DNA of 17,124 nucleotides from Candidatus Iainarchaeum sp. (GTDB lineage: Archaea; Iainarchaeota; Iainarchaeia; Iainarchaeales; DTGL01). The DNA lies in NCBI GenBank assembly GCA_038736825.1, contig JAVYME010000023.1, forward strand, positions 1-17,124, given 5' to 3'. Below are positions 973 through 16,753 of this stretch, piece after piece; the first letter of the stretch is position 1, and each line of letters begins with the position of its first letter. Both the position numbers and the translations under genes were made by a program. The notes below the pieces were generated by a model, which ran no database searches, was not told where the DNA came from, and saw nothing but the letters and a program-made list of their open reading frames with translations.

Positions 973-1030
973 CAAGAAAAACTTTTTTTGTTGATTATTG
1001 GCTTGAACCTGAAAAAAGCTTTTTTTTTTA
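973..1030. terminator. Intergenic region between convergent genes with T-tracts on both strands
   Basis: A T7 run lies at 983-989, just after the plus-strand stop. An A6-GC-T10 palindrome at 1012-1029 gives T10 on plus and T6 on minus, right after the minus-strand stop at 1028-1030. Archaeal termination typically uses oligo-T tracts. Confidence 0.35.
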
Positions 1031-1885
1031 TGCTGGCACCAAAAGCGATGTAGCCAAAAGATAGGCGGAAACTGAAGTAATGAGCAATATGAGGCAGTGT
1101 TTTAATCCTGCCACAAGGCTGTTTTCTGAAATCTTTCCAATCATTGGTCCAGCGAAAAGGCTTTGCACAACCAAGAGATGCAAAAAGTGTTCTGAAAAAT
1201 TTATTTTTTTCTGTTCACTGGATACTTGCATTGAAGAAATATCGCCTGCTAAAAGGCTTGCTGCATTTATTGACGGCTGATTTGCAATCAATGGCACAAA
1301 GTACACTTGAATGGCAATTATTATCATCACAAAAACATAAAACATCATGTATGCATTGAACAGCGTGGACATTGTGCGGCTTTTTCTTTGCTTTTTCAAT
1401 CTTTCAATTTTTTCCACGTATTTTGCGCTTGTTGTGAAAACTTTCATGAAGTTGCCGCCAGTGCGCAGGGTTTGGTTTATTACAGTAATTATTTTTCTTA
1501 TTAGTTGCGAGCGCACATCTGCAAACGTTATCTGCATTGCTTTTTCGAATGGAATTCCCAGTTTCACTTTTGCCGCAAGCCTTTTCACGTAAATGCTTAA
1601 AGGTCCATAATCGTTTCTGGCTGCTATTTGGAGTGCATCGTTTATGTTCACTCCTGCTTGGAGCAAATCCCTCAAATCGTCAAGCAAGACCCTGAAATTG
1701 TCCTCTAAGCCTTTTATTGCTCGGTTTTTGAGATAGTATGCCAAGAGCAGTGGAGTCAAAAAGGCAATTATTGGCACGATAAGCAAGCCCGTGCCTGCAA
1801 ACAGGAAAAAAAACACTGTGCCTAATGCTATTCCTAAAAGGCTGAATTTCAAGTAATAAACTAAAACTTCATCCATTTTTCCCAC
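1028..1885 (-). CDS. Type IV filament membrane platform protein with a single T2SSF domain (FlaJ/PilC C-terminal-half-like, TadC/EpdK-like)
   Basis: 285-aa ORF with N- and C-terminal TM segments flanking a cytoplasmic helical domain (LRDLLQAGVNINDALQIAA..LRTGGNFMKVF) typical of GspF/T2SSF repeats. The track start is GTG at 1885, with an alternative ATG at 1876 (MDEVLVYY). It lies 9 nt downstream of the preceding platform gene. Confidence 0.85.
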   Translation of the reverse strand: MGKMDEVLVYYLKFSLLGIALGTVFFFLFAGTGLLIVPIIAFLTPLLLAYYLKNRAIKGLEDNFRVLLDDLRDLLQAGVNINDALQIAARNDYGPLSIYVKRLAAKVKLGIPFEKAMQITFADVRSQLIRKIITVINQTLRTGGNFMKVFTTSAKYVEKIERLKKQRKSRTMSTLFNAYMMFYVFVMIIIAIQVYFVPLIANQPSINAASLLAGDISSMQVSSEQKKINFSEHFLHLLVVQSLFAGPMIGKISENSLVAGLKHCLILLITSVSAYLLATSLLVPA

Positions 1886-1894
1886 TTTAGAAAT

Positions 1895-2770
1895 TCATTC
1901 TGGTGATATCACGCTCATCACTATTATGAATGCAATGTTTGCTAGTGGTATTACCAGCCAAACCCCGTAAGTTACAAGTTGTTCTGTTGACAAGCCAAAA
2001 ATGCCGGAATCGCTTGCAAACATGCCTAAAAGCATTACTGAAAAGAACAAAAACAGCGGTGCCGCTATCAAGATAATGCTGTAAATTTCACCCAGTGTTT
2101 CTGCTCTTTCAGCGCTTCTTTCCAATTGCAGCATGTATTCAAAGTATGCGTCGTCTGCACGCTTTGCCATGAATTCTTTGAGGTCACCACCGCTTTTCAG
2201 TGTTGTGTTTAATTCTTTTAGAAAGGTTTGAAATTTTATTGATGGCGTTAATTCTATTTCTTTTGCCACTGCCTTGCTAAAGGAAAGCCCTAATTGGTCC
2301 ATAAAGCGCTGTATTTTTGTGCACTCTTTTTCAAGCCAGGGATAGTCTGGATTGCCTGCAATGGATTGAAACATGTATTGTGGTGGAGCGCCGCCTTCAC
2401 TAATCGTTGACATTGTGAGTATGGCAAGTGGAAGGTTTGCCTCTATTGTTTTGTTTTTTTTTGATAATTCCATTGAAGGCCAAACAAAAGAGAAAGCGAA
2501 AACGCCTGGAAGAAGGAAAAAAGGCAATAAGAAAAGCAGTGGGATTGCCAGGATTCCTGAAAAGAAAACAATTGCTGCAACAATAAAGGCAGCAATTGTG
2601 GAAATGACTGAAAGCGCAAGCCAGTATGCAAAATAGTGTCCAGTGCTATAAGGGTAATCTATATGCGCTAGTTTTTTTTTGAGCGATTCCATTTCCATGT
2701 TTTTTGTGATTTTGTAAAAGGTTTTTTCAGCAAAACTGAAAATAATTGAGTTTATTTTTTCTTTTAGCAT
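1895..2770 (-). CDS. Type IV filament membrane platform protein with a single T2SSF domain (FlaJ/PilC N-terminal-half-like, TadB/EpdJ-like)
   Basis: 291-aa ORF with a TM block followed by a T2SSF-like helical domain (LPLAILTMSTISEGGAPP..LKSGGDLKEFMAKRADDAYFEY) and C-terminal TMs. Its ATG lies 4 nt after the ATPase stop. Confidence 0.85.
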   Translation of the reverse strand: MLKEKINSIIFSFAEKTFYKITKNMEMESLKKKLAHIDYPYSTGHYFAYWLALSVISTIAAFIVAAIVFFSGILAIPLLFLLPFFLLPGVFAFSFVWPSMELSKKNKTIEANLPLAILTMSTISEGGAPPQYMFQSIAGNPDYPWLEKECTKIQRFMDQLGLSFSKAVAKEIELTPSIKFQTFLKELNTTLKSGGDLKEFMAKRADDAYFEYMLQLERSAERAETLGEIYSIILIAAPLFLFFSVMLLGMFASDSGIFGLSTEQLVTYGVWLVIPLANIAFIIVMSVISPE

Positions 2771-2774
2771 TCAG

Positions 2775-5039
2775 TCAACCTTCTTTTTGCGTTTTCAAGT
2801 CTTTTTCTTCGTCCTTGTATTCTTCCAAGCGCTTGGAGAACTCGTTGTAGTCTGAAACTCCTTCTTCCGCTAGTTTTTTCAAGAAAGCAGTCCGCTTTTC
2901 TATTTTTTTCTGCAATTCCAGCAAGGGAATGCTGTGCTCTTTGCTTATTTCTTTTAACAAAAAGCTTTTTCCAGTGATGGGGAAAAACTCTGCAATGCTT
3001 TTTTTGCCTCCCTGCAAGTCAGTTATTTCCTCTATTTCAGTGTTTTCAAGCAAGTCATTGTATTCAAGCCGCATTTCTTTTGCATTGTATCTTTTCACTT
3101 CCGCTATTGTCCTAATCCTTCTCTTAACCTCTTCCTCGCCTATAAAACCAATGTTTATTATTATATCCACTGATTCCAGCAAGGCAGGATACAAGTTTAT
3201 TGGAGGGGTTGTCAGCCTTGAAACAACATCATCAACAGACCTTGCGTGCAATGTTGCAAGAGAACAGTGCCCTGAAGCCATTCCCTGGAAAAGCACAAAG
3301 GTTTCTTTTCCCCTTACCTCGCCAACAATCAAGTAGTCAGGTCTTTGCCTGAAGGACTCCATTATTAGAGTCATCAAGTCAACTTCTCCAAAGCGCTTTC
3401 CAGTTGCATCTGGTGGTCCAAAGCCCTGCCTTGCAACCTGCGGCAGCCAGTTTTCATGCTTTATGTTCAATTCCCTTGTGTCCTCTATTGATACAACGCG
3501 ATTGCCGTATGGAATGAACATTGCTATTGCATTCAATACAGTTGTTTTTCCGCTTGCAGTTGGACCGGTTATCAGCATTGATTTTTTGAATTCGAGCACT
3601 GTCCAAAGATAGGCTGCAATCCTTGCACTCATTGTGCCATTTTTTATGAGCAGCGTGGGCGGCAAAGGTTTTTCCGGGAAAAGCCTTATAGTGAAGCTTG
3701 GGCCTTTCGTGGAAACAGATTTTGTTAGCACTGCGTTTACCCTTGAACCGTCAGGCAAAATGGAGTCAACAAGGGGGGATGCATATGAAACATATGTTTT
3801 GGAGAGTTGTGCGAGCTTGATTATAAAGTCCTCCAATACCTCAATATTGCTAAAAATAATGTTTGTTGCTATATGGCCTTCTTTTTGGTGGACAATGTAG
3901 ACTGGGACGTCAACACCATCGCATTCTATGTCTTCTATGAAAGAATCATGCATTAGCGGTTCTATTCTTTCAAGGCCCAAAAGGTCTCTTGAAAGATAGT
4001 ACATGAGCTTGTGCCTTCCCTGGCTTGAAAAGGAATAACCGCGCCTTTGAATGATGCTTTCCACTTTTTCAAACATTTTTTCTCGGCTTAATTCTTCAAT
4101 GGTTATTACTTCTATTAGTTCGTTTTTGATTTTGTTTATTTTTTCTCTTTCGTCTGCACTGAGGTCTGGTTCTATCACATAGTAAACCTTTTGTCCTTTT
4201 TTTTGGGATATTATTTTTCCATAAGCGTAGCCTGGAATTAAGGTTATGAGGTCTTTTGTTTCGCTTGAAAGCTCGGCTTTTTTTCCTTCAGCGAAAAGGG
4301 TTTCTTTTAGGGAAACAATTGTTTCAGCGTGTTGTCCGGTATCAATTTCCATTTTTCTAAAATCTTCAATGCTTGCTTTTTCAGCCAAGCCAGAGCCTGT
4401 GGCAAAAACTGGCACTTTGAAAACTTCTTGGATTTTTTCCCCTGTTTGCACTCCCTTGTTTCCAAAAATTTTTCCAAAAGATTCTGTTTTTTTGGTTAAA
4501 AACGAAAATCTTTTAGAAACTGTGTTCATTAATCCTGGTTTTTTTTGAAAGCCAGTGGCTTCTTCGCCTGTTTCGCTTTCTTTTGTTTCAATAAAAAAAG
4601 ATTTTATTTTGCTTATAGTTGATTGCCCGCCTTTCACTGGTTGTGGAATGCTTTTGCCTAATGGCAGAGCACTAACTATTTTTTCTTTTGTTCCACTGCC
4701 TTTGGGGGCAAAAACCACAAATTTTGCTTCCAAGGAGAATTGTTTTGCCAGTTGTCCGTAGGAATTAAATGCTTTCACGAATTCGCTTGCTGTTTTTTTT
4801 GCAATTTTTTCCCTAGAATTGAGTTTTTTTTCAGATATTTCTCTGGACAGGTTTTCCATTGCACTTGCACTGATTTCCATTTTTTTGCTTGCTTCCATTA
4901 GGGCTTGCTGCATGTTTTTTGGTTTAAATTCATTGCTTGAAAGAGTGTTTTCCAAAAAAACTAGGCTTGAAAGCCTTTCTTTTAGGGAAGAAAGCGCTGT
5001 TTTTTGCATTTCAAGCCTTTCAATGCTGTCTGTTGTCAT
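2775..5039 (-). CDS. FlaI/PilB/VirB11-family (T2SSE) secretion/assembly ATPase with a long N-terminal extension
   Basis: 754-aa ORF with Walker A GPTASGKT (nt 3543-3566), Walker B-like PDYLIVGEVRGKE and a His-box-like GHCSLATLHA. The canonical N-domain starts near YYVIEPDLSADEREKINKIK (about residue 285). The start ATG overlaps the upstream stop (ATGA at 5036-5039). Confidence 0.95.
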   Translation of the reverse strand: MTTDSIERLEMQKTALSSLKERLSSLVFLENTLSSNEFKPKNMQQALMEASKKMEISASAMENLSREISEKKLNSREKIAKKTASEFVKAFNSYGQLAKQFSLEAKFVVFAPKGSGTKEKIVSALPLGKSIPQPVKGGQSTISKIKSFFIETKESETGEEATGFQKKPGLMNTVSKRFSFLTKKTESFGKIFGNKGVQTGEKIQEVFKVPVFATGSGLAEKASIEDFRKMEIDTGQHAETIVSLKETLFAEGKKAELSSETKDLITLIPGYAYGKIISQKKGQKVYYVIEPDLSADEREKINKIKNELIEVITIEELSREKMFEKVESIIQRRGYSFSSQGRHKLMYYLSRDLLGLERIEPLMHDSFIEDIECDGVDVPVYIVHQKEGHIATNIIFSNIEVLEDFIIKLAQLSKTYVSYASPLVDSILPDGSRVNAVLTKSVSTKGPSFTIRLFPEKPLPPTLLIKNGTMSARIAAYLWTVLEFKKSMLITGPTASGKTTVLNAIAMFIPYGNRVVSIEDTRELNIKHENWLPQVARQGFGPPDATGKRFGEVDLMTLIMESFRQRPDYLIVGEVRGKETFVLFQGMASGHCSLATLHARSVDDVVSRLTTPPINLYPALLESVDIIINIGFIGEEEVKRRIRTIAEVKRYNAKEMRLEYNDLLENTEIEEITDLQGGKKSIAEFFPITGKSFLLKEISKEHSIPLLELQKKIEKRTAFLKKLAEEGVSDYNEFSKRLEEYKDEEKDLKTQKEG

Positions 5040-5359
5040 TCTGGAACTGCCTCCAATATTGTTCCAATGCCTTCTTTTTCAGATTTTTCCTTGTATTGGT
5101 TTTTCAATTCGGTCATTGTTAAGCCAATGGTGGCAATTTCTCTTTCCAAGCGTTCTCTCATGCTTTCAAGAACCTTTTCCAGTGCAAGAGCTTGTTTGCC
5201 GGCTTTTTCAGCTTCAATTGCGCTTTCTTTGGCGTTTTTTGCCTTTGCCAGCAAATTTTTATGGCTTTCTTCTATGCGAAGCATTTCCTCTATTTCCTTA
5301 ATGCATTTGTCTGTTGCACTTATTGCTTCTCTCAGTTTTTCCACAGTGTTTAACTCCAT
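5036..5359 (-). CDS. Small soluble coiled-coil protein of unknown function, translationally coupled to the ATPase
   Basis: 107-aa ORF rich in E/K/A/L with a heptad-like pattern and no TM segment. Its ATG overlaps the upstream gene end by 10 nt (ATGGAGTTAA), and its stop overlaps the ATPase ATG. Confidence 0.7.
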   Translation of the reverse strand: MELNTVEKLREAISATDKCIKEIEEMLRIEESHKNLLAKAKNAKESAIEAEKAGKQALALEKVLESMRERLEREIATIGLTMTELKNQYKEKSEKEGIGTILEAVPE

Positions 5360-6099
5360 GTTGCATCACTTGCCCAGACTCTTACAAAGTCTGCTCCGCT
5401 TTCAAGCCTGAAATGAACATTGTATCTATGCCCTTCACCCACAATGCTTGCTTTTATTTCCCCCCATCCAAGATTATAACCGCTTTTTATGAATTCTGTT
5501 GCAATATTGACATCCTCGCCTGCATGGCTGTCCATGTAAAAGTCTACTTTGGCGTTAAGGTCAGCTGGCACATCCTTAAACCTGATTTTTTGAACCAAAT
5601 TGTATGCTTTCATTGTTGTGTTGGAGTCCAGTTTTTTTATTGCAAGATAAATGTGTTCGTTTTCCAGTACTAGCACGTTTGTGTCTTCAATTGTGCCAAC
5701 ATAAGCGTCAACTTCCACGTTTACGCCTTGAAAATAGTTGCCTTGGCTTTTTCTGCTCCTGGGATTCATTACTTGTGCGCTGGTTTGCTTGTTCACTATT
5801 ATCATTTCAGAATCCCCATTGATGTCCATGGATTCTTTTGCTAGGTTTATGCTTATTCTTCTTTGCGAGTCCTTGCCTTCAGCGGCAACAATTGATATTG
5901 TTTTGTCCATTTCCTTGAGCATTGATTCAAGGTTTTTTATTTCCCCATAATCCTGCATTCTGTTAAGATAGGGTATTCCCACTTGGAGCACAATTGAGAC
6001 AATCACTATGCTCACTAGAGTGTAAATTATTGCACTAATAAGCGGGCTCACTCCTTTTGGTGCCACTCGTTTTTTTGATAATTTTGCAGTTTTGTTCAT
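5350..6099 (-). CDS. Archaeal type IV pilin-like protein (class III signal peptide), probable minor pilin or assembly factor
   Basis: The N-terminus MNKTAKLSKKRVAPKG|VSPLISAIIYTLVSIVIVSIVL has a basic leader, then the KG|VSPLI motif and a hydrophobic helix. This is the archaeal pilin/flagellin N-terminal domain pattern. It shares an ATGA overlap with the upstream ORF. Confidence 0.85.
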   Translation of the reverse strand: MNKTAKLSKKRVAPKGVSPLISAIIYTLVSIVIVSIVLQVGIPYLNRMQDYGEIKNLESMLKEMDKTISIVAAEGKDSQRRISINLAKESMDINGDSEMIIVNKQTSAQVMNPRSRKSQGNYFQGVNVEVDAYVGTIEDTNVLVLENEHIYLAIKKLDSNTTMKAYNLVQKIRFKDVPADLNAKVDFYMDSHAGEDVNIATEFIKSGYNLGWGEIKASIVGEGHRYNVHFRLESGADFVRVWASDATWS

Positions 6100-6656
6100 T
6101 CACTCACCACAATTTCATCCTGTCTGCGGATTTCTGCCCTGTAATCAAAGTCTTCTTTTAAGTCTAGAGTGTGACCGCAAATAATTAAGTCATAGTCATT
6201 ATTAAGCCATGCTCGTGGAAAGGTAGCAGTTGTGCCGTTTGCGATTGCAACTGGGCTTCGCTTGCTATTGTAATAAGTGCAGTCTGCACCAGACCAGTTG
6301 CCTACAAGGTAGTGCACTGAAACACCCCTAGTGTATTTTCCGGAAAACACAAGGTTGAAAGTGTAGCCTTTTTCGCTTGAAAAGGTTTTGAAATTATTGC
6401 TTGTTTCAATCATTATTCTATTCAAGTCGTTTTGGAAAATTCCTGCAGTGTAAGCAAGCGGTATTTCTCTTTCAATGTTTTCCATTAAAAAATGTCCTTC
6501 GGTTCTTTGATGGGGTTGGGTTCTTGAAACAAAGGCAACAGCAAACATTAGCATAACCAATATGAGTGAAACTATCAGGTATGCTTGCCCTTTATTGTTT
6601 CTGGCTCTTGGCATCAAACCTTTTTTGTTGGGTCTCTTGCAATTTTGTCCGAGCAT
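6096..6656 (-). CDS. Putative pilin-like, N-terminally anchored protein (possible class III signal)
   Basis: 186-aa ORF. MPRARNNKG|QAYLIVSLILVMLMFAVAFV resembles a basic leader, Gly and hydrophobic helix. A TAATG stop/start overlap links it to the upstream ORF. The start could also be the internal Met (MPRAR). Confidence 0.65.
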   Translation of the reverse strand: MLGQNCKRPNKKGLMPRARNNKGQAYLIVSLILVMLMFAVAFVSRTQPHQRTEGHFLMENIEREIPLAYTAGIFQNDLNRIMIETSNNFKTFSSEKGYTFNLVFSGKYTRGVSVHYLVGNWSGADCTYYNSKRSPVAIANGTTATFPRAWLNNDYDLIICGHTLDLKEDFDYRAEIRRQDEIVVSE

Positions 6657-7054
6657 TATTTCACCTTGAAAACCCAGATGAACATTTGTATTTTTTTCAT
6701 TGAATGGTTGGAAATGTTTCCATCAAACAAGTATGAAACAGTGGTGTATGCTTTGTCTGAGGGGATTTCTCCCCAGCAATTGGCGTTATTGTTTGCATCG
6801 CAAACTCTTAACGAATAAGGGTAGTCAAAATATCCATCCATGTATGCTTTCAGCATTGAAAGAGAATTTTCGTCTTTAACAGCGGCTGCCAGGTTTCTAA
6901 AGGATTGTTCTTCACAAAAGGAAAGGAAAGCGTCTTCTCCGGCTTCTCGCAAGCCAGTGTATTTTTCCTCTGGAACAAAATATGGAGATGAAATGAAGGT
7001 AATTGTTCCCAACAACAGTGCAGTTGCAAGCAGTGCTTCATAGGTTTTTATCAT
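6656..7054 (-). CDS. Small N-terminally membrane-anchored protein of unknown function in the pilus operon
   Basis: 132-aa ORF with hydrophobic N-terminus MIKTYEALLATALLLGTITFISS. A strong GGAGG lies 7 nt upstream of the ATG (7062-7066). Confidence 0.7.
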   Translation of the reverse strand: MIKTYEALLATALLLGTITFISSPYFVPEEKYTGLREAGEDAFLSFCEEQSFRNLAAAVKDENSLSMLKAYMDGYFDYPYSLRVCDANNNANCWGEIPSDKAYTTVSYLFDGNISNHSMKKIQMFIWVFKVK

Positions 7055-7061
7055 TTGAGTG

Positions 7062-7066
7062 CCTCC
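7062..7066 (-). promoter_or_regulatory. Shine-Dalgarno site of the 132-aa ORF
   Basis: The minus strand reads GGAGG 7 nt upstream of ATG 7054. Confidence 0.55.
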
Positions 7067-7074
7067 ACTTTTTT

Positions 7075-10000
7075 TTAAAGCCGTTTCAGCCTCCAGTAAA
7101 GATAGGCAATAATGGCTGCCATTATTATGAGGATTAATGGCAGTGGAATGCTGCCAGGCATTCCTCCAAAAGAAACCTCTGAAGCTTTATGTTTTGTTGG
7201 CAATGGCACTGGAATTTTGAAAAAGGATGAAGGGCTTGCTTGCAGTGCAGTAATTTCTTCTCCAGTAAAAGATTTTTTTGGCTTGTATTTTATGGTTTTT
7301 TCCTCTCCTGGTTGCAGTGATGGGACAAAAAAGGAAAGCACTGGGTCAACTTCAACTATTTCAAAAAGCGTGTTTGCTGACAAAACAGATGCTTTCTCTC
7401 CAATGCTTTTGGGAACAAACTCCACTACATTGAATGGAGTGCTTTCTTTTTGGCTCGTGTTTTTGACATAAATTACAACCAACAAATGCGTTTCAGTTTT
7501 TTGCCCAGAACTCACTTCTAAAGCAATTATTTCGCGCTTGAAAGAGAGTTCTCTCCAAAGGCTTTTTGCATCTGAAAGGGCTTCACCGTTCAAAAATTGT
7601 GCCAGAGATGTTTCAAGGGAATCCCTGTCAACAGAATAATCTATTGCCTGCGTGCTTTTCACAGAAACTTTTGGGCTTGCATTCCCAATTTTTTCCAAGA
7701 GTTTTGCAGCTTCAGCGAGCTCGCTTTCCACTGAAACAACATTGCTTTCCTTGAAAGCCTTTTTTGCCTTTTCAATGTGTTCTTTTGCGGTTTCAAGCCA
7801 AGACCTTGCTTCAGCTCCAGGATCAACAAGGAAGGCGTCAAGTAAAGCCATTATGGAATTAATTGAATCCAAAAGCGATTCAATGTTTTTTATTTTTTCA
7901 TTGAATCCACTGAAAAGCCTTAATTGCACGGTTTTTTCTGAAAAATTGTTTAAGTCATCAAACGCTTGTGCTTTAATGTTTGCATCACTCAAGCCGAGAG
8001 CCACTATATTCCAGTCAAAAACCGCGCTTTGCTTGTTAAGGTCTTTTCCAGAGAGTTCTGCAATAATTGTGCAATTCAAGCCATGGCAATTGCTTAGTTT
8101 TAGCCTTACGGTGTCTTCAGAAAACCTTGCTTTTATTTCAATTAATTCTTCGCTTTTTTGTTTTGCTTCAAGAAGGTTTAAGTCTGGCGGTGTTGCATCT
8201 ATGGTGAAAGCCAGTTCTTCGGTTGCATTTAAGTCAAGCGTGTCGGTTGCAAAAACAACCATTTTTGTGTTTCCATCAATTGGCTTGAAAAAGACAGTTC
8301 CTGACAGGGTTGTGCTATTGCCGGAAATTGAAAACTCTGAAGTGTTGCCGTCACTATAGTCAATTTTTCCATATGCAATTTTTAACGGATAATCACTGTA
8401 AATTTTAATGGGGTGTTCGCCGCCAGCATAGTGTTTGATTCCATTTTTGTAAGTGTATCCTTCAATTGAAACCTCTATTGTTGGCGCATTTGCATCGACA
8501 ACACTGCATTTTTCTTGGCTTAATTCTGAAAGATTGCCTGCCTTGTCCACAGATTGCACTCTATAACAGTATTTTGTTCGCCCGGTTGCTTTGTGTGAAA
8601 AGTTTGTGTCTTCCCTTGTTGCATAAGAGTTGGAGGAAGTTATTCCGCTTGCATTCGCATAATATATGCGATAATGGCTTATTCCACTGCCAACATCGGT
8701 TGCTTGGCTCCATTGGACAATGTTATTGGAGTCAATGCGTTCAATGCTGGTTATTGAAGGCATGGCTGGAGAGTTCCTGTCAAGGAAAACAGAGCGCTGG
8801 ACTTTTGTGTTATTGTCATGGTTGTCAAAAACCCAAGCATAAACTGTCCTGTTTCCATCTGTTGCAGTGCAACCGTTTTCTGAAGTTATTGAAAAAGTTT
8901 TAACTGGAAAAGAATAAAAGTGGCTGGAATAATTGGCATCATTGCAGCTGAACCTTGCACTGTACAAGTCTATCCCAGAAACATTTATGTCTGGAAACTC
9001 TGAATTAACATACCATTCAATAAAAAAGTTAATGTCGGTTGGCGCACTAATGTCTGGCACAGTTGCGCTAGCACTATTAGAGAGTGCTGAAATGTTTCCA
9101 GCTCCATCCACTGCTTTAATGGCATAATAGTATGTGGTGTCTTCGTTTGCCATGCTCATTGCGTCAACATAGTTTGTGTTTGAACTGCTTATTGATTCAG
9201 AAACAAGAGTTGCACTGGAAAGATTTGAAGAATTAATGGCTGAAGTGTAACGGTACAGGAGAAAATGAGAGAGACCGCTCCCGCCAGAATCCAGAGGTGC
9301 ACTCCAGTAAATGTTAAGATCGTGTTTTCCTAAAACATTTTTTACATTTAGGTCTGAAACAGCGCTTGGAGGGACCTCGTCTATAATGAAAGACCAGTTT
9401 AAGTCTTTATTGTTGCCAGCATTGTCTTCAAAATAAACGCTTACTGCCACGGTTAGACTTGAAATGTTGCTGTCTGGCTTGTAGGATAAAAGGACTCCGT
9501 TTGGAATCTGGGTTTTTTTAATGTTTGTGTCTGGAATTGGGTCCCCGTTAACCCACAAAAATATGGAAGAGGCTTTCACTCCAGATTCTGCATCCAAGAG
9601 TTGCACATTTATGTCTGGAGTGCGAGTGTTTGCATAATTTTTCGGGTTTTCAGAAGAATGGGTTGGAGAATTCAAGTCTATGCAAAGCTCTGTAAAAGAA
9701 TTTTTTGTGCTAATATTGCCAACTCTGTCAACCTGTTTTCCAACAACATAAGACATGCAAGAAATGCTTTTGCCAAAAGAAGAAACTGAAAAGCTTGCTC
9801 CATAAATGCCATCGTTTGCATCAAAATCATTGTGTGCTCCATCATCATACAAGTTCAAGTCCAAAATTGTGCCTATTGAGGCAAAAGTGTTTGAATCCTT
9901 TTCCCCTGAAACCCTGATTGTCAGAGTTTTGCTCCCATTTAAAATGGAATTAATGTCACTTGCATTGGCGTCATGCCATACATAGTTTATTGTTGGACCA

Positions 10001-10356
10001 GTTGTGTCAAGGTTTATGGTATCGCTTGCGCTTGCAAGGTTTAAACTTGTATCTCGCACTCTTGCATAAACTGTTTTTTGGCCATCTCCGGTTGTGCAGC
10101 CTGGACCGGAATTCAAGTTGAAGGGGTAAGTTGCAGCATAATCAATCCAGCCACTGTAAGTGGAGTTATCGCAAGAGAACTGCATTTGGTGACCATCAAC
10201 TGCAGAAATGTAGAGAATTACTTGGGGGGAATTGGTGTCAGGTTCGTTTTTTTGAATATTGAAGTCGGTTATTGAGACAATAGCGATGGTTGCTTGCAAG
10301 TATAAGAGGAAAATTGTGGCAAGGGTAATCCGGAAAAGCTTTTTTTTCATTCCCAT
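7075..10356 (-). CDS. Large secreted, C-terminally anchored surface protein/adhesin with FN3 and Ig-like repeats
   Basis: 1093-aa ORF with a Sec-like N-terminal signal (MGMKKKLFRITLATIFLLYLQATIAIVS). Two FN3-like modules are recognisable (about nt 9055-9375, PPSAVSDLNV..YWSAP..SGLSHFLLYRY..YYYAIKAVDGAGNIS, and about nt 8494-8772, VQWSQATDVGSGISHYRIYY..CYRVQSVDKAGNLS). It also has a duplicated Cys-containing module, a helical segment and a C-terminal PGS-TM-RLKRL tail. I counted about 23 N-X-S/T sequons manually. Confidence 0.9.
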   Translation of the reverse strand: MGMKKKLFRITLATIFLLYLQATIAIVSITDFNIQKNEPDTNSPQVILYISAVDGHQMQFSCDNSTYSGWIDYAATYPFNLNSGPGCTTGDGQKTVYARVRDTSLNLASASDTINLDTTGPTINYVWHDANASDINSILNGSKTLTIRVSGEKDSNTFASIGTILDLNLYDDGAHNDFDANDGIYGASFSVSSFGKSISCMSYVVGKQVDRVGNISTKNSFTELCIDLNSPTHSSENPKNYANTRTPDINVQLLDAESGVKASSIFLWVNGDPIPDTNIKKTQIPNGVLLSYKPDSNISSLTVAVSVYFEDNAGNNKDLNWSFIIDEVPPSAVSDLNVKNVLGKHDLNIYWSAPLDSGGSGLSHFLLYRYTSAINSSNLSSATLVSESISSSNTNYVDAMSMANEDTTYYYAIKAVDGAGNISALSNSASATVPDISAPTDINFFIEWYVNSEFPDINVSGIDLYSARFSCNDANYSSHFYSFPVKTFSITSENGCTATDGNRTVYAWVFDNHDNNTKVQRSVFLDRNSPAMPSITSIERIDSNNIVQWSQATDVGSGISHYRIYYANASGITSSNSYATREDTNFSHKATGRTKYCYRVQSVDKAGNLSELSQEKCSVVDANAPTIEVSIEGYTYKNGIKHYAGGEHPIKIYSDYPLKIAYGKIDYSDGNTSEFSISGNSTTLSGTVFFKPIDGNTKMVVFATDTLDLNATEELAFTIDATPPDLNLLEAKQKSEELIEIKARFSEDTVRLKLSNCHGLNCTIIAELSGKDLNKQSAVFDWNIVALGLSDANIKAQAFDDLNNFSEKTVQLRLFSGFNEKIKNIESLLDSINSIMALLDAFLVDPGAEARSWLETAKEHIEKAKKAFKESNVVSVESELAEAAKLLEKIGNASPKVSVKSTQAIDYSVDRDSLETSLAQFLNGEALSDAKSLWRELSFKREIIALEVSSGQKTETHLLVVIYVKNTSQKESTPFNVVEFVPKSIGEKASVLSANTLFEIVEVDPVLSFFVPSLQPGEEKTIKYKPKKSFTGEEITALQASPSSFFKIPVPLPTKHKASEVSFGGMPGSIPLPLILIIMAAIIAYLYWRLKRL

Positions 10357-10379
10357 CGTATATGAGTATTGTTTCGTTC

Positions 10380-10404
10380 TTTAAAAGCTTTATTAATATA
10401 TTTA
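10380..10404 (-). promoter_or_regulatory. Internal promoter candidates for the adhesin gene
   Basis: On the minus strand, cttttaaa (10380-10387) is centred 27.5 nt upstream of ATG 10356, which would make the transcript leaderless. The adjacent taaatatattaata (10391-10404) is an alternative TATA element. Confidence 0.35.
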
Positions 10405-10438
10405 GAAACTTTTTTTTGAATGAGTGGGAAAAGCTTTT

Positions 10439-10843
10439 TTAGGCTGTTTCTTTGGTTGTTTCTGCTAGCGCGGTAATCCTTTGCTTGAACCATTCCAGGG
10501 AATAAAAGCCAGTGAATTTTTCGCTGCCCAAAATAAAGCAGGGCACTTCTTCTTCTGAAATGTTGTTTTGCCCCATTTTGCCTGGTTCTGCTTCAACGTT
10601 TACAATTGTAATCTTTGCAATTTTTGAAAGGTTTTCGTCTTCTCCGATTTTGCGCAAGATTTCTTGGAGTTTTGCTGAATCGCTGTCAAAGGTTTTAAGG
10701 AAGGCAACCACTTTTATTTCCCTTGTCCTTTTCACGTTATCATTTGGAATGATGTTCAATATTGAGGGTAAAACAAAAAAATAAAGCAATAAGAGCGATA
10801 TTGCCAGTATCACTATTTTTCCAGCCAAAGTTAGTTTTACCAT
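10439..10843 (-). CDS. Membrane-anchored thioredoxin/glutaredoxin-fold protein lacking the CXXC motif
   Basis: 134-aa ORF with an N-terminal TM segment. The rest follows a beta-alpha-beta...cis-Pro pattern: IKVVAFLKTF-DSDS-AKLQEILRKI, KITIVNVE, then EEVPCFILGSEKFTGFYSLEWFKQRI. This aligns by eye with small archaeal thioredoxin-like proteins (VKIELFTSPMCPHCPAAK..VPTIVINGDVEFIG), with DSDS in place of CPHC. Confidence 0.55.
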   Translation of the reverse strand: MVKLTLAGKIVILAISLLLLYFFVLPSILNIIPNDNVKRTREIKVVAFLKTFDSDSAKLQEILRKIGEDENLSKIAKITIVNVEAEPGKMGQNNISEEEVPCFILGSEKFTGFYSLEWFKQRITALAETTKETA

Positions 10844-10854
10844 GCCAATCCCTT

Positions 10855-11289
10855 TTAACTACAATTTGTTGTTTTGTGGGAAAGGTTTTTGCAATCCCGA
10901 GAAGTGACTTTTATTTCTGCTGGGCTTTCTCCGGGGTCGAGTTGTATGTAAACTTTTCCATAAGCGCTCTCTTTAAGGTTTATATTGCAAATGTTGGTGT
11001 CAGATTCACCACTGCTGTACCTTACAGTTACAGTGAAGGAATTCAAGTCCACAAAATCAGTGTTTTCTAATAATATTGTGGCAATGTTGGTGTCGCCTGC
11101 ATCAAAAGAGCATGAAACTATTTGAAAGCCAGCATTAGAGCATTTTATTTGTTCATCTGAAATTCTTTGCTGGTTGGACAACTCGTTATTGTAATAAGTG
11201 TACATCCATGAAAAAAAAAGGCCGCCTATGCCCATTGCCACTAAAACCAAGAGCATTGTTGCAATGAGCGGGCTTACTCCCTTGTTCAT
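10855..11289 (-). CDS. Archaeal type IV pilin (class III signal peptide), pilin B
   Basis: MNKG|VSPLIATMLLVLVAMGIGG. The track ORF starts at TTG 11310, but ATG at 11289 is preceded by AAGGTG (11299-11304) at a 9-nt spacing and gives the typical short leader. It shares the YSSGESDTN motif with pilin A. Confidence 0.9.
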   Translation of the reverse strand: MNKGVSPLIATMLLVLVAMGIGGLFFSWMYTYYNNELSNQQRISDEQIKCSNAGFQIVSCSFDAGDTNIATILLENTDFVDLNSFTVTVRYSSGESDTNICNINLKESAYGKVYIQLDPGESPAEIKVTSRDCKNLSHKTTNCS

Positions 11290-11298
11290 TCCAAAAAA

Positions 11299-11304
11299 CA
11301 CCTT
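11299..11304 (-). promoter_or_regulatory. Shine-Dalgarno site of pilin B
   Basis: The minus strand reads AAGGTG 9 nt upstream of ATG 11289. Confidence 0.5.
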
Positions 11305-11336
11305 TTTCAAAGCAGAATAAAATAGTGTTTTACTGG

Positions 11337-11345
11337 TTTAAATAA
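11337..11345 (-). promoter_or_regulatory. TATA-like element upstream of pilin B
   Basis: The minus strand reads ttatttaaa about 52 nt upstream of ATG 11289. This would give a ~25-nt leader containing the AAGGTG SD. Confidence 0.3.
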
Positions 11346-11380
11346 CTTTCTGTATTGTTGCCTTAAGAAAAAGATTGAAT

Positions 11381-11417
11381 AAATAAAATAAAAGAAGGGA
11401 AGGGTGAAACCCCATCC
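11381..11417 (-). terminator. Candidate terminator after pilin A (short GC hairpin plus T-rich tract)
   Basis: ggaagggtgaaaccccatcc (11398-11417) can form a 3+3 bp GC-rich stem with one mismatch and a 6-nt loop. On the minus strand it is followed by ttcttttattttattt (11381-11396). Confidence 0.3.
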
Positions 11418-11437
11418 TTTTTCAAACAATTTAAAAT

Positions 11438-11902
11438 TCAACCTGTTATATCGCTTTGGTTTACTTCTGTTGCAATGTTGCACTGTGTGGATTCAACTCT
11501 GACTCTTAATGGTTTGCTAGCGCCATTGGCAGTGCCACCCACAGTTAGAAGTGTTTGTGCGCCAGCGGCTATTGTTGTGTCAGCATATGTATTGGTGTCA
11601 CTATTGCCTCCAGAATAGTATGCGATTAACTTGAACCCGTTTAGGTCTCTTGAGCCTTTATTTTGCACCACCAAGGTTGTGTTTTTTGTGGTTGAATTCC
11701 AAACGGGTTTTGTATCAGTAAGGTCAATTCCAAGACTCACTCCAGCGCACCCTGTCATTCTTTGTCGCTCTTGTTCGCTTTCCGTTTGAACACTTGACTG
11801 CATGGATGTCACCCATTGCCAGATTATTACTCCTACAGCCATGCACACTAGCAACAGTAATACTGTTGCAATCAGCGGACTAACTCCTTTTTGGTTTTTC
11901 AT
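11438..11902 (-). CDS. Archaeal type IV pilin (class III signal peptide), pilin A, candidate major subunit
   Basis: MKNQKG|VSPLIATVLLLLVCMAVGVIIW. GGGTGAT (11908-11914) lies 5 nt upstream of the ATG. The gene has its own upstream TATA-like elements and a downstream hairpin with a T-rich tract. It is the first gene of the locus. Confidence 0.9.
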   Translation of the reverse strand: MKNQKGVSPLIATVLLLLVCMAVGVIIWQWVTSMQSSVQTESEQERQRMTGCAGVSLGIDLTDTKPVWNSTTKNTTLVVQNKGSRDLNGFKLIAYYSGGNSDTNTYADTTIAAGAQTLLTVGGTANGASKPLRVRVESTQCNIATEVNQSDITG

Positions 11903-14036: not shown

Positions 14037-15101
14037 ATGCCTTCAAGGGATTTCATTTCAGAGGCAGCTGAAAGCATTTTAAGAGTTGAAGAGAAAAGGC
14101 AAAAGCTTGCTGCCAAAATAAAGCCTTTCAAGAAAAACAAAATGAACGCTGAAGAGCAAATGGTGGAAAAAACAGAGTGCGCTAAATTGAACGAAAGAAT
14201 TGCAGGAATAGATTCAGGTTTTGTTGGTCAAGAGTTCTTTTCACTGGACTTAGTCCTTGTAAGGGCAAGAGGTGTCATATTTGACTACCAGAATGGCTGC
14301 CTTGCAAGAGCAATCTATTATCCAAACTATTATTCTTTTCCAGAGCCCTTGATTTCAAACAGAGCACTCCAAAAAGAAGATGTTTCTTCAAACAAAAGCC
14401 TGCAAAGGCTTGCCAAAGAAATAATTTTAGCGCAAGAAATAATTGAAAGGTTTTCCCCAGATTATTGCTTTCTTGACGGTTCAATTGTGCCACAGCATGC
14501 AGACAAGCCCCGCTCCAACTCTCAAATGCAGCCATTCTACAAGGAAGTCATAAAAAAATTTGAATCGCTTTTTTCCATTGCAATTGAAAAAAACTGCACT
14601 CTTGTGGGCTGTGTTGAGGACTCGCGTGGAACTCGCTTCAAGGACATTGTGGAAAAAATAATTGGCGAAAAAGAATTTTCAGGCATAAACGAGTGTTTTG
14701 ATGCAGCACTATTGGACTTGCTTTTAGCAGAAGGAGAGCGCTCTTTTGCTTTCCCTTACGCTGAAAACATAAAAGAACACCCCGTATTGCAAGATTTTTC
14801 AAAAGAGTTTGCGGAAATGGTGCACGCTTTTTATTTAAAACCCTCTGCCCTAGACAAGCCTTTAAGGGTAGAGTTTTTGTTGCAAAAAAGCCATGGCAAA
14901 AAAGAAACCGACAGGATTGCATCAGTTGTTTTCGCTCAAAGCCGGCTTCACCGCGAATACTCTTATCCAGCAATCCTTATAGAGGCAGACTTGCGTTCTC
15001 GCTTAAAGGAAGAGGAAATTAAAATAATTTGCGACAAAATATTTGACAGGATGGGGGGAAGCAAAAGGCTTTCACTTAGAAGAGGCAAAAGACCGTTTTA
15101 A
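14037..15101 (+). CDS. nurA: NurA-family 5'-3' nuclease
   Basis: 354-aa ORF immediately upstream of, and SD-coupled to, a HerA gene. NurA-like motifs are recognisable: IAGIDSGF, YCFLDGSIVPQ, LVGCVEDSRG, PLRVEF and YPAILIEADLRSRL. Confidence 0.78.
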   Translation: MPSRDFISEAAESILRVEEKRQKLAAKIKPFKKNKMNAEEQMVEKTECAKLNERIAGIDSGFVGQEFFSLDLVLVRARGVIFDYQNGCLARAIYYPNYYSFPEPLISNRALQKEDVSSNKSLQRLAKEIILAQEIIERFSPDYCFLDGSIVPQHADKPRSNSQMQPFYKEVIKKFESLFSIAIEKNCTLVGCVEDSRGTRFKDIVEKIIGEKEFSGINECFDAALLDLLLAEGERSFAFPYAENIKEHPVLQDFSKEFAEMVHAFYLKPSALDKPLRVEFLLQKSHGKKETDRIASVVFAQSRLHREYSYPAILIEADLRSRLKEEEIKIICDKIFDRMGGSKRLSLRRGKRPF

Positions 15102-15106
15102 GGGTG
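15101..15106 (+). promoter_or_regulatory. Shine-Dalgarno site of herA
   Basis: AGGGTG lies 5 nt upstream of ATG 15112 and overlaps the nurA stop codon. Confidence 0.5.
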
Positions 15107-15111
15107 CTTGA

Positions 15112-16647
15112 ATGAACGATTTTTTGGGAACAGTTATTTCAACACTTAATTCGCCCTCCCCCAGCGAAATGAGCTTTGTGGTGACAAAAGGAGAAGTGCA
15201 CAGAGGGCAATTCGTTGAAGCAGATTATTCTGAAGGCACAATGGTTGCACTCATCACAAATGTGATTAAAACAAACCGTTATTTTGAAAGAGCTGATTCC
15301 GTAAAAGAATTTGAGGCAAGAGGCTCAGCTCTTTTCGAACAGTTTCCCACAACAGAATGGGAATACCTTGTTGCCAACACCAAACCATTGGGAGTCTTTC
15401 AAAAAGACAAAGTTTTAAGGGCAAGCTTTCCGCCATCGCCTGGCACAAAGGTCAGGCTGGCAAGAGCAGAAACCTTAAAAAAATTCTTCAAGTTTGATGA
15501 AGAAAAAGGCTTAAACCTTGGAAAAGTTGAATTCCATGACTTGGATGTAAAATTAAACCTCACAAAACTCTTGAAAAAGCACTTGGCAATCTTAAGCATT
15601 TCTGGCGCTGGAAAAAGTTATACTGTGAGCATTCTATTGGAAGAACTCTTGGACCGCAAAAAAGAACACGGCAGGATTGCCTGCATTGTATTGGACCCAC
15701 ACGGCGAATACTCCTCCTTTGCCGAACCCGTAAAAGACAAAGAACACACAGATTACAGTGACCGCACCCTTTTAGTGAAAGGCCGCAGTGTAAGGATTGC
15801 AGTGCCATCGCTCAGCGTTGGAATGCTGGCTGGCATTGTAGGCGGCTTGAGCGGACCACAAAAAAGGGATTTAAACAAAATCATCTCAAAGCTCTCAGGG
15901 GAAATGAAATCTGGACTTGGGCCTTTTGATTTTGAAAGCGTGAAAAAGGAAATAATTCAGGATTCTGAGATAAAAGAGAACACCAAGGGCCCGCTTTTGG
16001 GCTGGATTTCCGAATTGGAGCAAATGCGCTTGTTTTCAAAAATTGATTCTCCGAGCGTGCGCGACATTGTAAGACCAGGCTATCTAACCATAGTTGACCT
16101 TTCAGACATAATTGATGTAAAGAAAAAACAGGTTATTGTAAGCCATTTTTCGCGCAAGCTTTTTGATGAAAGGCGAAAGAAAAGCATTCCGCCTTTTTTG
16201 CTTGTTTTAGAGGAAGCCCACCAGTTTTGTCCAGAGCGTGTTTCAGAAGAGCAGGCAGTTTCAAGGAATATAGTTCGCACGATTGCTCGCGAGGGAAGAA
16301 AGTTTGGTGCATCAATTTGCCTTGTATCCCAAAGGCCAGTGCAATTGGATACAACTTCGCTTTCCCAGTGCAACACCAAAATAATTCTCCGTGTAACCAA
16401 TCCTTATGATTTAAAGCACTTGGCTGAATCCTCTGAGGCAATTGACCAGCGCTCGCTTGAAATGATCACTTCACTCCAAGTGGGCGAGGCACTAATAATA
16501 GGAGAAGCAGTTAATTATCCATTATTTTTCAAGGTAAGGGAAAGAAAATCGCTTCCATCCAAGCACGAAATTTCCTTAGAGGACGCTGCCCTGCAATTTG
16601 AATCTTCAAAGAAAAAAGAAGAAGAGGAAACAGAAGCGTTTTTGTGA
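15112..16647 (+). CDS. herA: HerA-family (DUF87, FtsK-HerA superfamily) hexameric ATPase/helicase
   Basis: 511-aa ORF with an N-terminal barrel-like region (GTVISTL..FVVTKGEVHRGQFVEADY..MVALITNV). Walker A is ISGAGKSY (nt 15598-15621) and Walker B is FLLVLEEAHQFCP. It also has REGRKFGASICLVSQRP and NTKIILRVTNPYD. AGGGTG lies 5 nt upstream of the ATG. Confidence 0.92.
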   Translation: MNDFLGTVISTLNSPSPSEMSFVVTKGEVHRGQFVEADYSEGTMVALITNVIKTNRYFERADSVKEFEARGSALFEQFPTTEWEYLVANTKPLGVFQKDKVLRASFPPSPGTKVRLARAETLKKFFKFDEEKGLNLGKVEFHDLDVKLNLTKLLKKHLAILSISGAGKSYTVSILLEELLDRKKEHGRIACIVLDPHGEYSSFAEPVKDKEHTDYSDRTLLVKGRSVRIAVPSLSVGMLAGIVGGLSGPQKRDLNKIISKLSGEMKSGLGPFDFESVKKEIIQDSEIKENTKGPLLGWISELEQMRLFSKIDSPSVRDIVRPGYLTIVDLSDIIDVKKKQVIVSHFSRKLFDERRKKSIPPFLLVLEEAHQFCPERVSEEQAVSRNIVRTIAREGRKFGASICLVSQRPVQLDTTSLSQCNTKIILRVTNPYDLKHLAESSEAIDQRSLEMITSLQVGEALIIGEAVNYPLFFKVRERKSLPSKHEISLEDAALQFESSKKKEEEETEAFL

Positions 16648-16649
16648 GG

Positions 16650-16691
16650 TTTGAAAAAACTCAAATTTTTAGCACTGTTTAAGCTTTTTTT
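16650..16691 (+). terminator. Candidate terminator region after herA
   Basis: A small hairpin pairs tttga (16650-16654) with tcaaa (16661-16665). It is followed by T5 (16666-16670) and then T7 (16685-16691). Confidence 0.3.
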
Positions 16692-16723
16692 ACTGTTCAG
16701 GGGAAGCGAACTCTATCAAGTGC

Positions 16724-16731
16724 TTTTTAAA
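16724..16731 (+). promoter_or_regulatory. TATA-box-like element for the leaderless ORF starting at 16754
   Basis: tttttaaa is centred 26.5 nt upstream of the A of the ATG. This matches archaeal TATA-to-TSS spacing for a leaderless mRNA. Confidence 0.4.
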
Positions 16732-16753
16732 CCCGGAAAGCGTGCTTTTTTGC

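Follow-up and report, generated by a model that had tools for sequence, protein, structure and literature searches.

What kind of machine is encoded by a cluster of eleven genes that combines pilin-like proteins, an assembly ATPase and very large surface proteins in an archaeon, and what would such a machine be used for? The cluster lies on contig JAVYME010000023.1, one entire 17.1-kb contig (17,124 bp; hereafter the window) of a metagenome-assembled genome of the Diapherotrites/Iainarchaeota, which belong to the DPANN archaea. Most DPANN archaea are uncultured and many are host-attached, and pili are leading candidates for the attachment structures, as in ultrasmall bacteria (PMC9894109, PMC11291902). 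A first-pass annotation of the window had read the cluster as a single co-expressed, Epd/Tad-like adhesion pilus with unusual embedded genes. Our analysis indicates that the locus very probably encodes a complete type IV filament system, i.e., an adhesive pilus, of this Iainarchaeal DPANN archaeon, and that its most likely biological role, judged from the genes, is attachment to surfaces or other cells. The first-pass view of a non-archaellum filament with several pilins, a split platform and embedded proteins was thus retained, and its Epd/Tad label, the single operon and the unusualness of the large protein were not.

The case for a filament system begins with the assembly core, the parts of which were identified by Pfam, NCBIfam and PDB searches (Table 1). 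The ATPase, to which a protein of a 'Candidatus Diapherotrites archaeon' metagenome-assembled genome is 100% identical, is a hexameric secretion ATPase of the FlaI/GspE2 type and a T2SSE family member (Pfam, 7.7e-33). Four motifs, namely Walker A (GPTASGKTT), Walker B, the Asp box and the His box, are intact in it and invariant across 19 orthologues. Its match to PilB3_C is borderline (Pfam, 4e-06; 27.3 bits against a cut-off of 27), and its N-terminal extension is conserved within the Iainarchaeal clade. Among solved structures, the highest score is that of A. fulgidus GspE2 (2oap, 307 bits), followed by S. acidocaldarius FlaI (4ii7, 226 bits) and CpaF (127 bits). Since the proteins of 291 and 285 aa each carry one T2SSF domain and three transmembrane segments, the platform is split over two genes; its first half also gives partial ArlJ and UpsF matches that are far under cut-off (NCBIfam). 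One T2SSE ATPase and two T2SSF platform proteins are what the first-pass annotation had called. The 107-aa coiled-coil protein encoded next to the ATPase has no predicted signal or transmembrane segment; its position is kept in all relatives (homologues of 107-116 aa), and its sequence diverges fast.

The second group of core parts comprises the pilins. Three class III signal-peptide proteins and a possible fourth had been proposed from the sequence, and both parts of this proposal find support at the level of motifs. A KGVSP motif followed by a hydrophobic helix is present in the proteins of 154, 151 and 249 aa, and the corresponding [KR][GA]-Q-[AT]-Y motif of the 186-aa protein, which also shows a weak match to the minor pilin ComGD (NCBIfam, E 0.019), is kept in 11 of 11 aligned orthologues. 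The general pattern, [KR]G/[VQ] plus a hydrophobic helix, is conserved in all four proteins, and their matches to Pilin_N, TIGR02537 and UpsA remain under the curated cut-offs; profile searches recovered the T2SSE, T2SSF and fn3 domains of the locus but did not reach threshold with the pilin models. Pilin A gives weak matches to UpsA and arch_flag_Nterm (NCBIfam) and to CARDB (Pfam), every one under cut-off, and the same is true of pilin B with Pilin_N (E 0.041) and UpsA (2.1e-06). Translation of pilin B more likely starts at an internal ATG than at the TTG. The 132-aa protein is of a different type: its non-canonical N-terminus is kept across 12 aligned orthologues, an alignment in which no [KR][GA] cleavage site is found, and it matches no Pfam or NCBIfam family. 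Orthologue alignments revealed conserved Cys pairs in four proteins: pilin A, pilin B and those of 132 and 186 aa.

Table 1. Features of the pilus locus and its flanks, in window coordinates. A slash marks the predicted cleavage site; TM, transmembrane.
Feature	Length	Position	Strand	Characteristics
Pilin A	154 aa	11438..11902	-	Class III signal MKNQKG/VSPLIATVLL; globular beta-rich domain; one conserved Cys pair
Pilin B	151 aa from TTG start	10855..11310	-	Class III motif MNKG/VSPLIATMLL; four conserved Cys
Thioredoxin-fold protein	134 aa	10439..10843	-	N-terminal TM helix 6-31, then beta-alpha-beta-alpha-beta-beta-alpha
Type I surface protein	1093 aa	7075..10356	-	Sec-type signal; FN3 domains; C-terminal TM helix 1073-1090
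Pilin-like protein	132 aa	6656..7054	-	N-terminus M-x-K-T-[FY]-E-A plus hydrophobic helix; conserved Cys pair
Minor-pilin candidate	186 aa	6096..6656	-	Class III motif [KR][GA]/Q[AT]Y (here NKG/QAYL); two conserved Cys
Minor pilin	249 aa	5350..6099	-	PKG/VSPLISAIIY; DUF7289-related family
Cytoplasmic coiled-coil protein	107 aa	5036..5359	-	Translational coupling to both neighbours
Assembly ATPase	754 aa	2775..5039	-	N-terminal extension of ~265 aa; FlaI/GspE2-type N-terminal domain; T2SSE core; PilB3_C tail
Platform half 1 (TadC1)	291 aa	1895..2770	-	One T2SSF domain, 4.6e-15 (Pfam); 3 TM
Platform half 2 (TadC2)	285 aa	1028..1885	-	One T2SSF domain, 5.9e-20 (Pfam); 3 TM
LamG (concanavalin-like lectin) protein	636 aa	12065..13975	+	Sec-secreted; Laminin_G_3 1e-24 (Pfam); divergent
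Giant convergent surface protein, fragment	C-terminal 304 aa	55..969	+	Cut by contig end

An archaellum operon with diverged accessory genes also has to be considered, as FlaI/ArlI (NF058587) is the best NCBIfam model of the ATPase and pilin A gives a weak ArlG match (E 1.4e-04), the sole one in the window. However, the former score (344.8 bits) is under the cut-off of 550, and the latter (21.9 bits against a cut-off of 110) comes mainly from the N-terminal helix. No family of KaiC/ArlH, ArlF/G, ArlCDE or ArlX is found in any open reading frame (ORF) of the window by Pfam or NCBIfam. In addition, the platform is split where an archaellum would have a single ArlJ, and the ATPase has its 265-aa extension, in contrast to the minimal-form ATPases of archaella (bioRxiv 10.64898/2026.04.22.720090). 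By its gene content, the locus is not an archaellum, as the first-pass annotation had also concluded, and we regard the archaellum explanation as extremely improbable.

Conservation of the locus provides the remaining part of the evidence for a filament system. Relatives were scanned using one genome per GTDB species, and every window protein was compared by tblastn with the loci found. The N-terminally extended ATPase occurs in ~13 Iainarchaeal loci (56-76% identity), and the full 11-gene order together with the convergent giant protein was observed in ~12 species-level Iainarchaeal genomes, among which protein identity falls to 25-60%; no Iainarchaeal locus with enough flank departs from it. 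This order is pilin(s), thioredoxin-like protein, large protein, the proteins of 132, 186 and 249 aa, coiled-coil protein, ATPase, TadC1, TadC2 and the convergent giant protein, and its preservation across ~12 species suggests that the genes form one functional module. Across these loci, the surface proteins are 25-63% identical and the motor proteins 50-86%, so that the surface part diverges faster, and a locus may have one, two or three pilin genes. The next ATPase relatives are found in Woese-, Pace- and Nanoarchaeota; they are 42-45% identical over the core and lack the extension. The loci of these lineages have a reduced core of pilin, 249-aa-type pilin, ATPase, TadC1 and TadC2, in which homologues of the 249-aa pilin adjoin the ATPase (tblastn). 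Thus, the filament-system reading is based on identified core parts with invariant catalytic motifs in the ATPase, on class III motifs conserved in orthologue alignments, and on a gene order that has been kept.

One distant locus deserves a description of its own. In the woesearchaeote AR15 (L022 4121-14057, Archaeon GW2011_AR15 chromosome), the locus starts with the genes of a surface protein of 1068 aa and of two small proteins of the [KR]A/Q type, and the first TadC (558 aa) has an N-terminal extension of ~270 aa rich in charged residues, whereas the ATPase has none, which is the reverse of the Iainarchaeal arrangement. The idea that one domain was relocated between the two proteins was rejected, as the ATPase extension and the AR15 TadC1 extension have no sequence similarity.

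How the eleven genes may be expressed can be examined from their junctions. The ORF list agrees exactly with the eleven co-directional minus-strand genes of the first-pass annotation, which span 1028-11902, and every junction sequence that it had quoted is correct (TAATG at 6654-6658, ATGA at 6096-6099 and 5036-5039, and a 10-nt overlap at 5350-5359). The remaining small gaps are 4, 9, 11 and 20 nt. From the 1093-aa gene to the last platform gene, spacing ranges from -10 to +20 nt, and Shine-Dalgarno-like motifs precede most genes downstream of the 1093-aa gene. There are only two larger gaps. The first, of 127 nt, follows the first pilin gene and contains a hairpin (11365-11445, minus strand; -19.6 kcal/mol, z -2.26) and, behind it, T-rich runs; the second, of 82 nt, lies 5' of the 1093-aa gene (10357-10438, minus strand) and contains a TATA-like box ~27 nt upstream and no Shine-Dalgarno motif. 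Because of these two gaps, with their hairpin and oligo-T runs and their TATA-like box, the genes may be transcribed as up to three units, one with pilin A, one with pilin B and the thioredoxin-like gene, and one that extends from the 1093-aa gene through TadC2. The single co-expressed set of the first-pass annotation is overstated in view of these gaps. Since the TATA-like box is located there and a Shine-Dalgarno motif is missing, unlike in most downstream genes, the 1093-aa gene may be the first gene of a transcript that includes the assembly genes. Pilin A is probably a major pilin, expressed from a promoter of its own and followed by a separate terminator. Two other ORFs were dismissed: a 58-aa ORF (11307-11483), where no gene is called in relatives, and a spurious 132-aa minus-strand ORF (16690-17088) that is antisense to a conserved plus-strand gene. 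G+C content is ~40% across the whole window, and Rfam and tRNA scans of it detected no RNA genes.

In addition to the core, the locus encodes a thioredoxin-fold protein, whose gene is located directly 3' of the last pilin gene without exception among the relatives examined. Its fold had to be recognized by structure prediction, as a single-sequence Pfam scan gave no match and a profile search against PDB sequences gave weak thioredoxin hints only (E 0.02-1). An AlphaFold 2 model with the family alignment as input had a predicted local distance difference test (pLDDT) score of 81.4, and the best 50 Foldseek matches of this model in the PDB were all thioredoxins (target-normalised TM-score 0.65-0.79), the best being 1v98_A (E 3.7e-05, root-mean-square deviation 2.0 A, TM-score 0.79 on target). 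A profile search of 5.8 billion proteins recovered a family of 25 clusters only, none of which is annotated or has a Pfam match on record; organism names, where given, are Diapherotrites. The CXXC motif is absent from 25 of 25 members in the family alignment, and the model and Foldseek agree on the CXXC-less thioredoxin fold that had been proposed on first reading. The CXXC site, between strand 1 and helix 1, is occupied by K50-T-F-D53, with K50 and D53 at least 90% conserved, and P101-C102, at the cis-proline position, is invariant in the family. This narrowly distributed protein without the usual redox motif is a new part of the locus.

The closest functional parallel that we can offer is TraF of the F plasmid. 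This protein is thioredoxin-like, has no CXXC, and is required for F-pilus extension in a redox-independent way, by a mechanism that is unclear (PMC11315126). As in F-like conjugative systems, the window protein combines a CXXC-less thioredoxin fold with a place inside a filament-assembly cluster whose secreted parts have Cys pairs. The two proteins have no sequence relation, however, and TraF serves a type IV secretion pilus and is periplasmic and soluble, whereas the window protein has an N-terminal membrane anchor and an invariant Pro-Cys; the likeness is one of analogy only.

The second embedded gene encodes the 1093-aa protein, which had been described as rich in FN3/Ig-like domains and heavily decorated with sequons. 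The domain description is borne out by a match to fn3 (Pfam, 3.9e-08) and by the beta-sandwich domains of its model. Modelling with AlphaFold 2 (mean pLDDT 67) was poor up to residue 440 and good beyond it; the well-modelled part comprises four beta-sandwich/FN3 domains (445-815), a three-helix bundle (818-893) and an alpha/beta domain (896-1060). The badly modelled N-terminal half is variable and holds a choice-of-anchor-X motif (choice_anch_X, NCBIfam, 5.3e-09). More distant orthologues keep only residues 468-1089, and in half of the lineages only the C-terminal ~620 aa of the protein remain. Sequons are enriched, but modestly (23 observed against 14.7 expected, P ~0.014). BLAST comparison showed no relation to either flanking protein, and a paralogy with the LamG protein was rejected on this ground.

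Two readings of the 1093-aa protein may be considered, of which an adhesin is one and a surface-layer-like (S-layer-like) protein the other. Its Sec-type signal and C-terminal membrane anchor give it an S-layer-like architecture, and Makarova et al. 2016 read a large protein with a C-terminal transmembrane domain inside a pilus locus in this way (PMC4858521). It has also been suggested that proteins of this kind may prepare the envelope so that the filament can pass (bioRxiv 10.64898/2026.04.22.720090). Large Ig-like, adhesin or S-layer-like genes have been described as common within archaeal pilus loci (PMC4858521; bioRxiv 10.64898/2026.04.22.720090); of the two embedded genes that the first-pass annotation had considered unusual, this description fits the thioredoxin-fold gene, but not the large one.

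Indirect evidence that bears on an adhesive use of the filament comes from homologues of the 249-aa pilin. An exhaustive phmmer search identified 332 representatives that range from 235 to 1485 aa. DUF7289 (PF23960) is matched by 51 of 82 homologues of typical length (best 2.8e-10), and the window protein itself has no DUF7289 match. The longer homologues begin with the same pilin module and continue into Laminin_G_3, DUF2341 or beta-propeller/PQQ domains; these fusion proteins of other archaea look like pilin-borne adhesins. Fused forms, of up to 1485 aa, include P0224, P0242, P0253, P0272, P0285, P0299, P0278, P0256 and P0338. The signature minor pilin of clade 2 archaeal pili is described as FlaFind-positive, all-beta, 250-550 aa and length-variable (PMC4858521). 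By its variable length, pilin module and DUF7289 relation, the 249-aa pilin may be of the type described by Makarova et al.

The domains found in the fusion proteins occur in the window on separate flanking genes. The LamG protein, whose gene adjoins the pilus locus in 7 relatives, is similar to the pilin-LamG fusion P0299 in the LamG domain (E 2e-14) and at the C-terminus (E 3e-4), and its role is probably an accessory one, in adhesion or at the cell surface. On the other side, the left flank had been called a surface protein; it is one, but the window holds only the C-terminal fragment of a giant convergent protein. The 304-aa fragment is 68% identical (tblastn) to residues 2063-2366 of a 2366-aa protein in the closest relative (L001), which carries DUF2341 (5.8e-23), and the giant convergent gene is located 3' of the second platform gene in every relative. 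Makarova et al. have proposed DUF2341 proteins as PilY-like tip adhesins (PMC4858521). The homology of the fragment begins at base 55, right after an in-frame stop at 52-54, and the first start codon does not occur before 268; the 5' end in the window could be a contig-end artefact or reflect a truncated gene. The two flanking proteins share two short domains only, and the paralogy that had been proposed for them goes no further than that.

There is indirect support for the LamG and giant Ig-like proteins being functionally part of the pilus. The tie is drawn because homologues of the 249-aa pilin are fused elsewhere to LamG or DUF2341, and because all relatives encode the giant protein behind the last platform gene, with DUF2341 in the closest one. 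This apparent link of an ATPase-adjacent minor pilin to LamG and DUF2341 domains through fusion proteins is new.

The genes beyond the LamG gene raise the question of whether the machine is mainly adhesive at all. A canonical NurA (8.6e-09) and HerA (DUF87, 2.3e-29) pair (14037-16647, plus strand) is located 3' of the LamG gene, several relatives also have NurA and HerA next to LamG, and the ATPase has a sub-threshold NCBIfam match to BasE, the bindosome ATPase. The machine might then serve secretion or surface display as a short, bindosome-like pseudopilus, or it might be a DNA-uptake or exchange pilus that involves NurA-HerA. The BasE score, however, is 200 bits against a cut-off of 1000. 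NurA-HerA has been lost from the neighbourhood in two relatives (L003 and L019) in which the pilus locus is intact, so the association looks like inherited synteny, and we judged a functional partnership unlikely. Moreover, the conserved partners of the locus are three large Ig/LamG/DUF2341 surface proteins. We consider a non-adhesive machine to be very unlikely, and attachment remains the preferred use.

Several additional observations concern the genes around these loci. Many relatives, though not all, retain LamG, NurA and HerA as neighbours. A plus-strand gene that starts at 16754 runs off the contig end (17124) and is 48% identical to a 461-aa protein that follows HerA in a related locus (L087). 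In L088 (4287-6111), a HEPN/nucleotidyltransferase pair and a helix-turn-helix gene are located between NurA-HerA and the pilus-flanking gene. Two Iainarchaeum-type contigs of 193 kb and 664 kb (L005 and L006) encode a second ATPase lineage (653-675 aa, 50% identical over the core); genes for proteins of 325, 122, 150 and 116 aa precede this ATPase, the other strand carries a gene of 454-458 aa, the surroundings include FtsZ, SecE and ribosomal genes, and no Pfam T2SSF gene adjoins the ATPase in either contig.

These components suggest the following mechanism. A prepilin peptidase encoded elsewhere would cut the pilins after [KR]G; this processing is assumed, because no such peptidase is found in the window or in the 10-kb flanks of gene-called relatives. 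The ATPase, docked on the split platform, would pull pilins from the membrane and polymerise them, a process probably modulated by the ATPase extension (265 aa) and by the translationally coupled coiled-coil protein of 107 aa. The 132-, 186- and 249-aa proteins may form a priming or tip complex, and pilin A and/or pilin B the shaft. The 249-aa DUF7289-type pilin could be an adaptor for adhesive modules, with LamG and DUF2341 placed here on separate flanking genes. The membrane-anchored thioredoxin-fold protein might be a folding or holding factor for the Cys-pair pilins, either non-redox or with a single Cys, as has been proposed for the CXXC-less TraF in the assembly of F pili. Finally, the C-terminally anchored 1093-aa Ig/FN3 protein, made with the assembly genes, would be a cell-envelope (S-layer-like) or adhesive stalk protein.

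A number of points weigh against a complete adhesive pilus. The filament of this lineage, its expression and its use in adhesion are predicted from the genes. None of the pilin calls attains a curated Pfam or NCBIfam threshold, and their basis is motif, hydrophobic helix, context and conservation. No A24 prepilin peptidase is encoded in the 17-kb contig or in the 10-kb flanks of relatives with called genes. The Foldseek matches of the 1093-aa protein are generic Ig/FN3 arrays only (receptor ectodomains, macroglobulins and adhesins), and the profile of its conserved C-terminal 285 aa matches nothing in Pfam or PDB. The link between the LamG protein and the pilus is indirect, as a similarity of this protein to the 249-aa pilin itself was rejected, none being found. 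With regard to the thioredoxin-fold protein, charge leaves the membrane side of its domain ambiguous, and the role proposed for it is based on analogy only.

With these points taken into account, the locus provides a fully resolved parts list of an Iainarchaeal pilus across ~12 species, with a core that is common to pilus loci of Woese-, Pace- and Nanoarchaeota. It also provides two testable points, namely a narrowly distributed thioredoxin-fold accessory tied to pilin genes and a fusion link of a minor pilin to lectin-like domains. A bolder proposal would be that, among archaeal type IV filament systems, the thioredoxin-fold protein is the first factor dedicated to folding or holding pilins and that the 249-aa pilin is a docking adaptor for exchangeable LamG/DUF2341 giant adhesins; taken jointly, we regard these two roles as conceivable but rather unlikely. 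If true, folding factor and docking adaptor would make up a modular host-attachment organelle of a DPANN archaeon. As it stands, the work refines the catalogue of archaeal type IV filaments and leaves the current view unchanged.

Which of the known filament systems does the locus resemble most? Its general plan is also the one described in the literature, where an ATPase and TadC are accompanied by a PilA-type major pilin, by a signature minor pilin with a length of 250-550 aa and by proteins of S-layer-like or adhesin type (PMC4858521; bioRxiv 10.64898/2026.04.22.720090). Within this plan, the split platform recalls both Epd (system 1) and subsystem 4A, and the label Epd/Tad-like had been given to the locus on first reading. 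An Epd-type pilus (system 1/clade 1, Tad-like), related to the Epd machine of Methanococcus maripaludis, would account for the two single-domain T2SSF genes, and for the DUF2341 of the neighbouring giant protein in the closest relative, since large proteins of this type also occur near the Epd pilus. System 1 has been reported in some DPANN archaea, and Epd is likewise an 11-gene cluster (bioRxiv 10.64898/2026.04.22.720090), with an adhesin-like member. However, two tadC genes are also found in many clade 2 loci (PMC4858521), and the features that are Epd's own, i.e., short major pilins without a globular domain, EppA in the locus and, as far as ATPase scores indicate, a distinct ATPase clade, are not seen in the window. 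The window pilins are ~150 aa and have a globular beta-rich domain, compared with ~70 aa in Epd pilins (PMC4858521), and the locus encodes no EppA-type (9-TM) peptidase. The ATPase scores far higher with GspE2 and FlaI than with CpaF, and its N-terminal extension and PilB3_C tail are system 2 traits; the ATPase-adjacent pilin is DUF7289-related and length-variable, like the clade 2 signature pilin. The Epd/Tad label thus keeps the split platform in its favour and nothing else, and we consider an Epd-type machine improbable.

Judged by gene content and sequence scores, the locus fits better with the euryarchaeal clade 2/system 2 plan, combined with a split platform. With regard to the ATPase, this assignment is based on its affinities, its N-terminal extension and its PilB3_C tail; with regard to the other genes, it is based on the globular pilins, the DUF7289-type pilin, the pilin-like protein that has no class III site, the large Ig-like protein and the absence of EppA. 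Several features agree with system 2, of which PilA1-6 and PilB3-PilC3 of Haloferax volcanii are an example. The ATPase has an N-terminal extension and a PilB3_C tail, and GspE2 is its closest solved relative; the major pilins are globular and PilA-like; the minor pilin linked to the ATPase belongs to a family that varies in length and is probably related to DUF7289; one pilin-like protein lacks a canonical class III site; and the locus includes a large protein of adhesin-like or S-layer-like type. The locus differs from system 2 in its split platform, a single platform gene being typical of system 2 (bioRxiv 10.64898/2026.04.22.720090, Sivabalasarma & Albers 2026), but this feature is not strict given the clade 2 loci with two tadC genes noted above (PMC4858521). 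Further differences are the absence of a MinD/FleN ATPase nearby, the presence of the thioredoxin-fold and 107-aa coiled-coil genes, and the DPANN host.

Conserved DPANN pilus loci have already been reported by Makarova et al. 2019 (PMC6393860) and, for cluster 2 lineages, by Hamm et al. 2024 (PMC11291902). The loci of cluster 2 DPANN archaea (Woese-, Pace-, Nano-, Nanohalo- and Aenigmarchaeota; PMC11291902, PMC6393860) differ from the window, which belongs to cluster 1 DPANN, in that their ATPases have no N-terminal extension and that neither a thioredoxin-fold gene nor homologues of the 132- and 186-aa proteins are detectable by tblastn. They resemble it in the ATPase core (42-45% identity), the shared core order, a large surface protein at the head of the locus (AR15) and coiled-coil components. 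Overall, because conserved pilus loci of DPANN archaea are already in the literature (PMC6393860; PMC11291902), the Iainarchaeal locus is best described as a lineage-specific variant of a known machine and not as a new kind of system.

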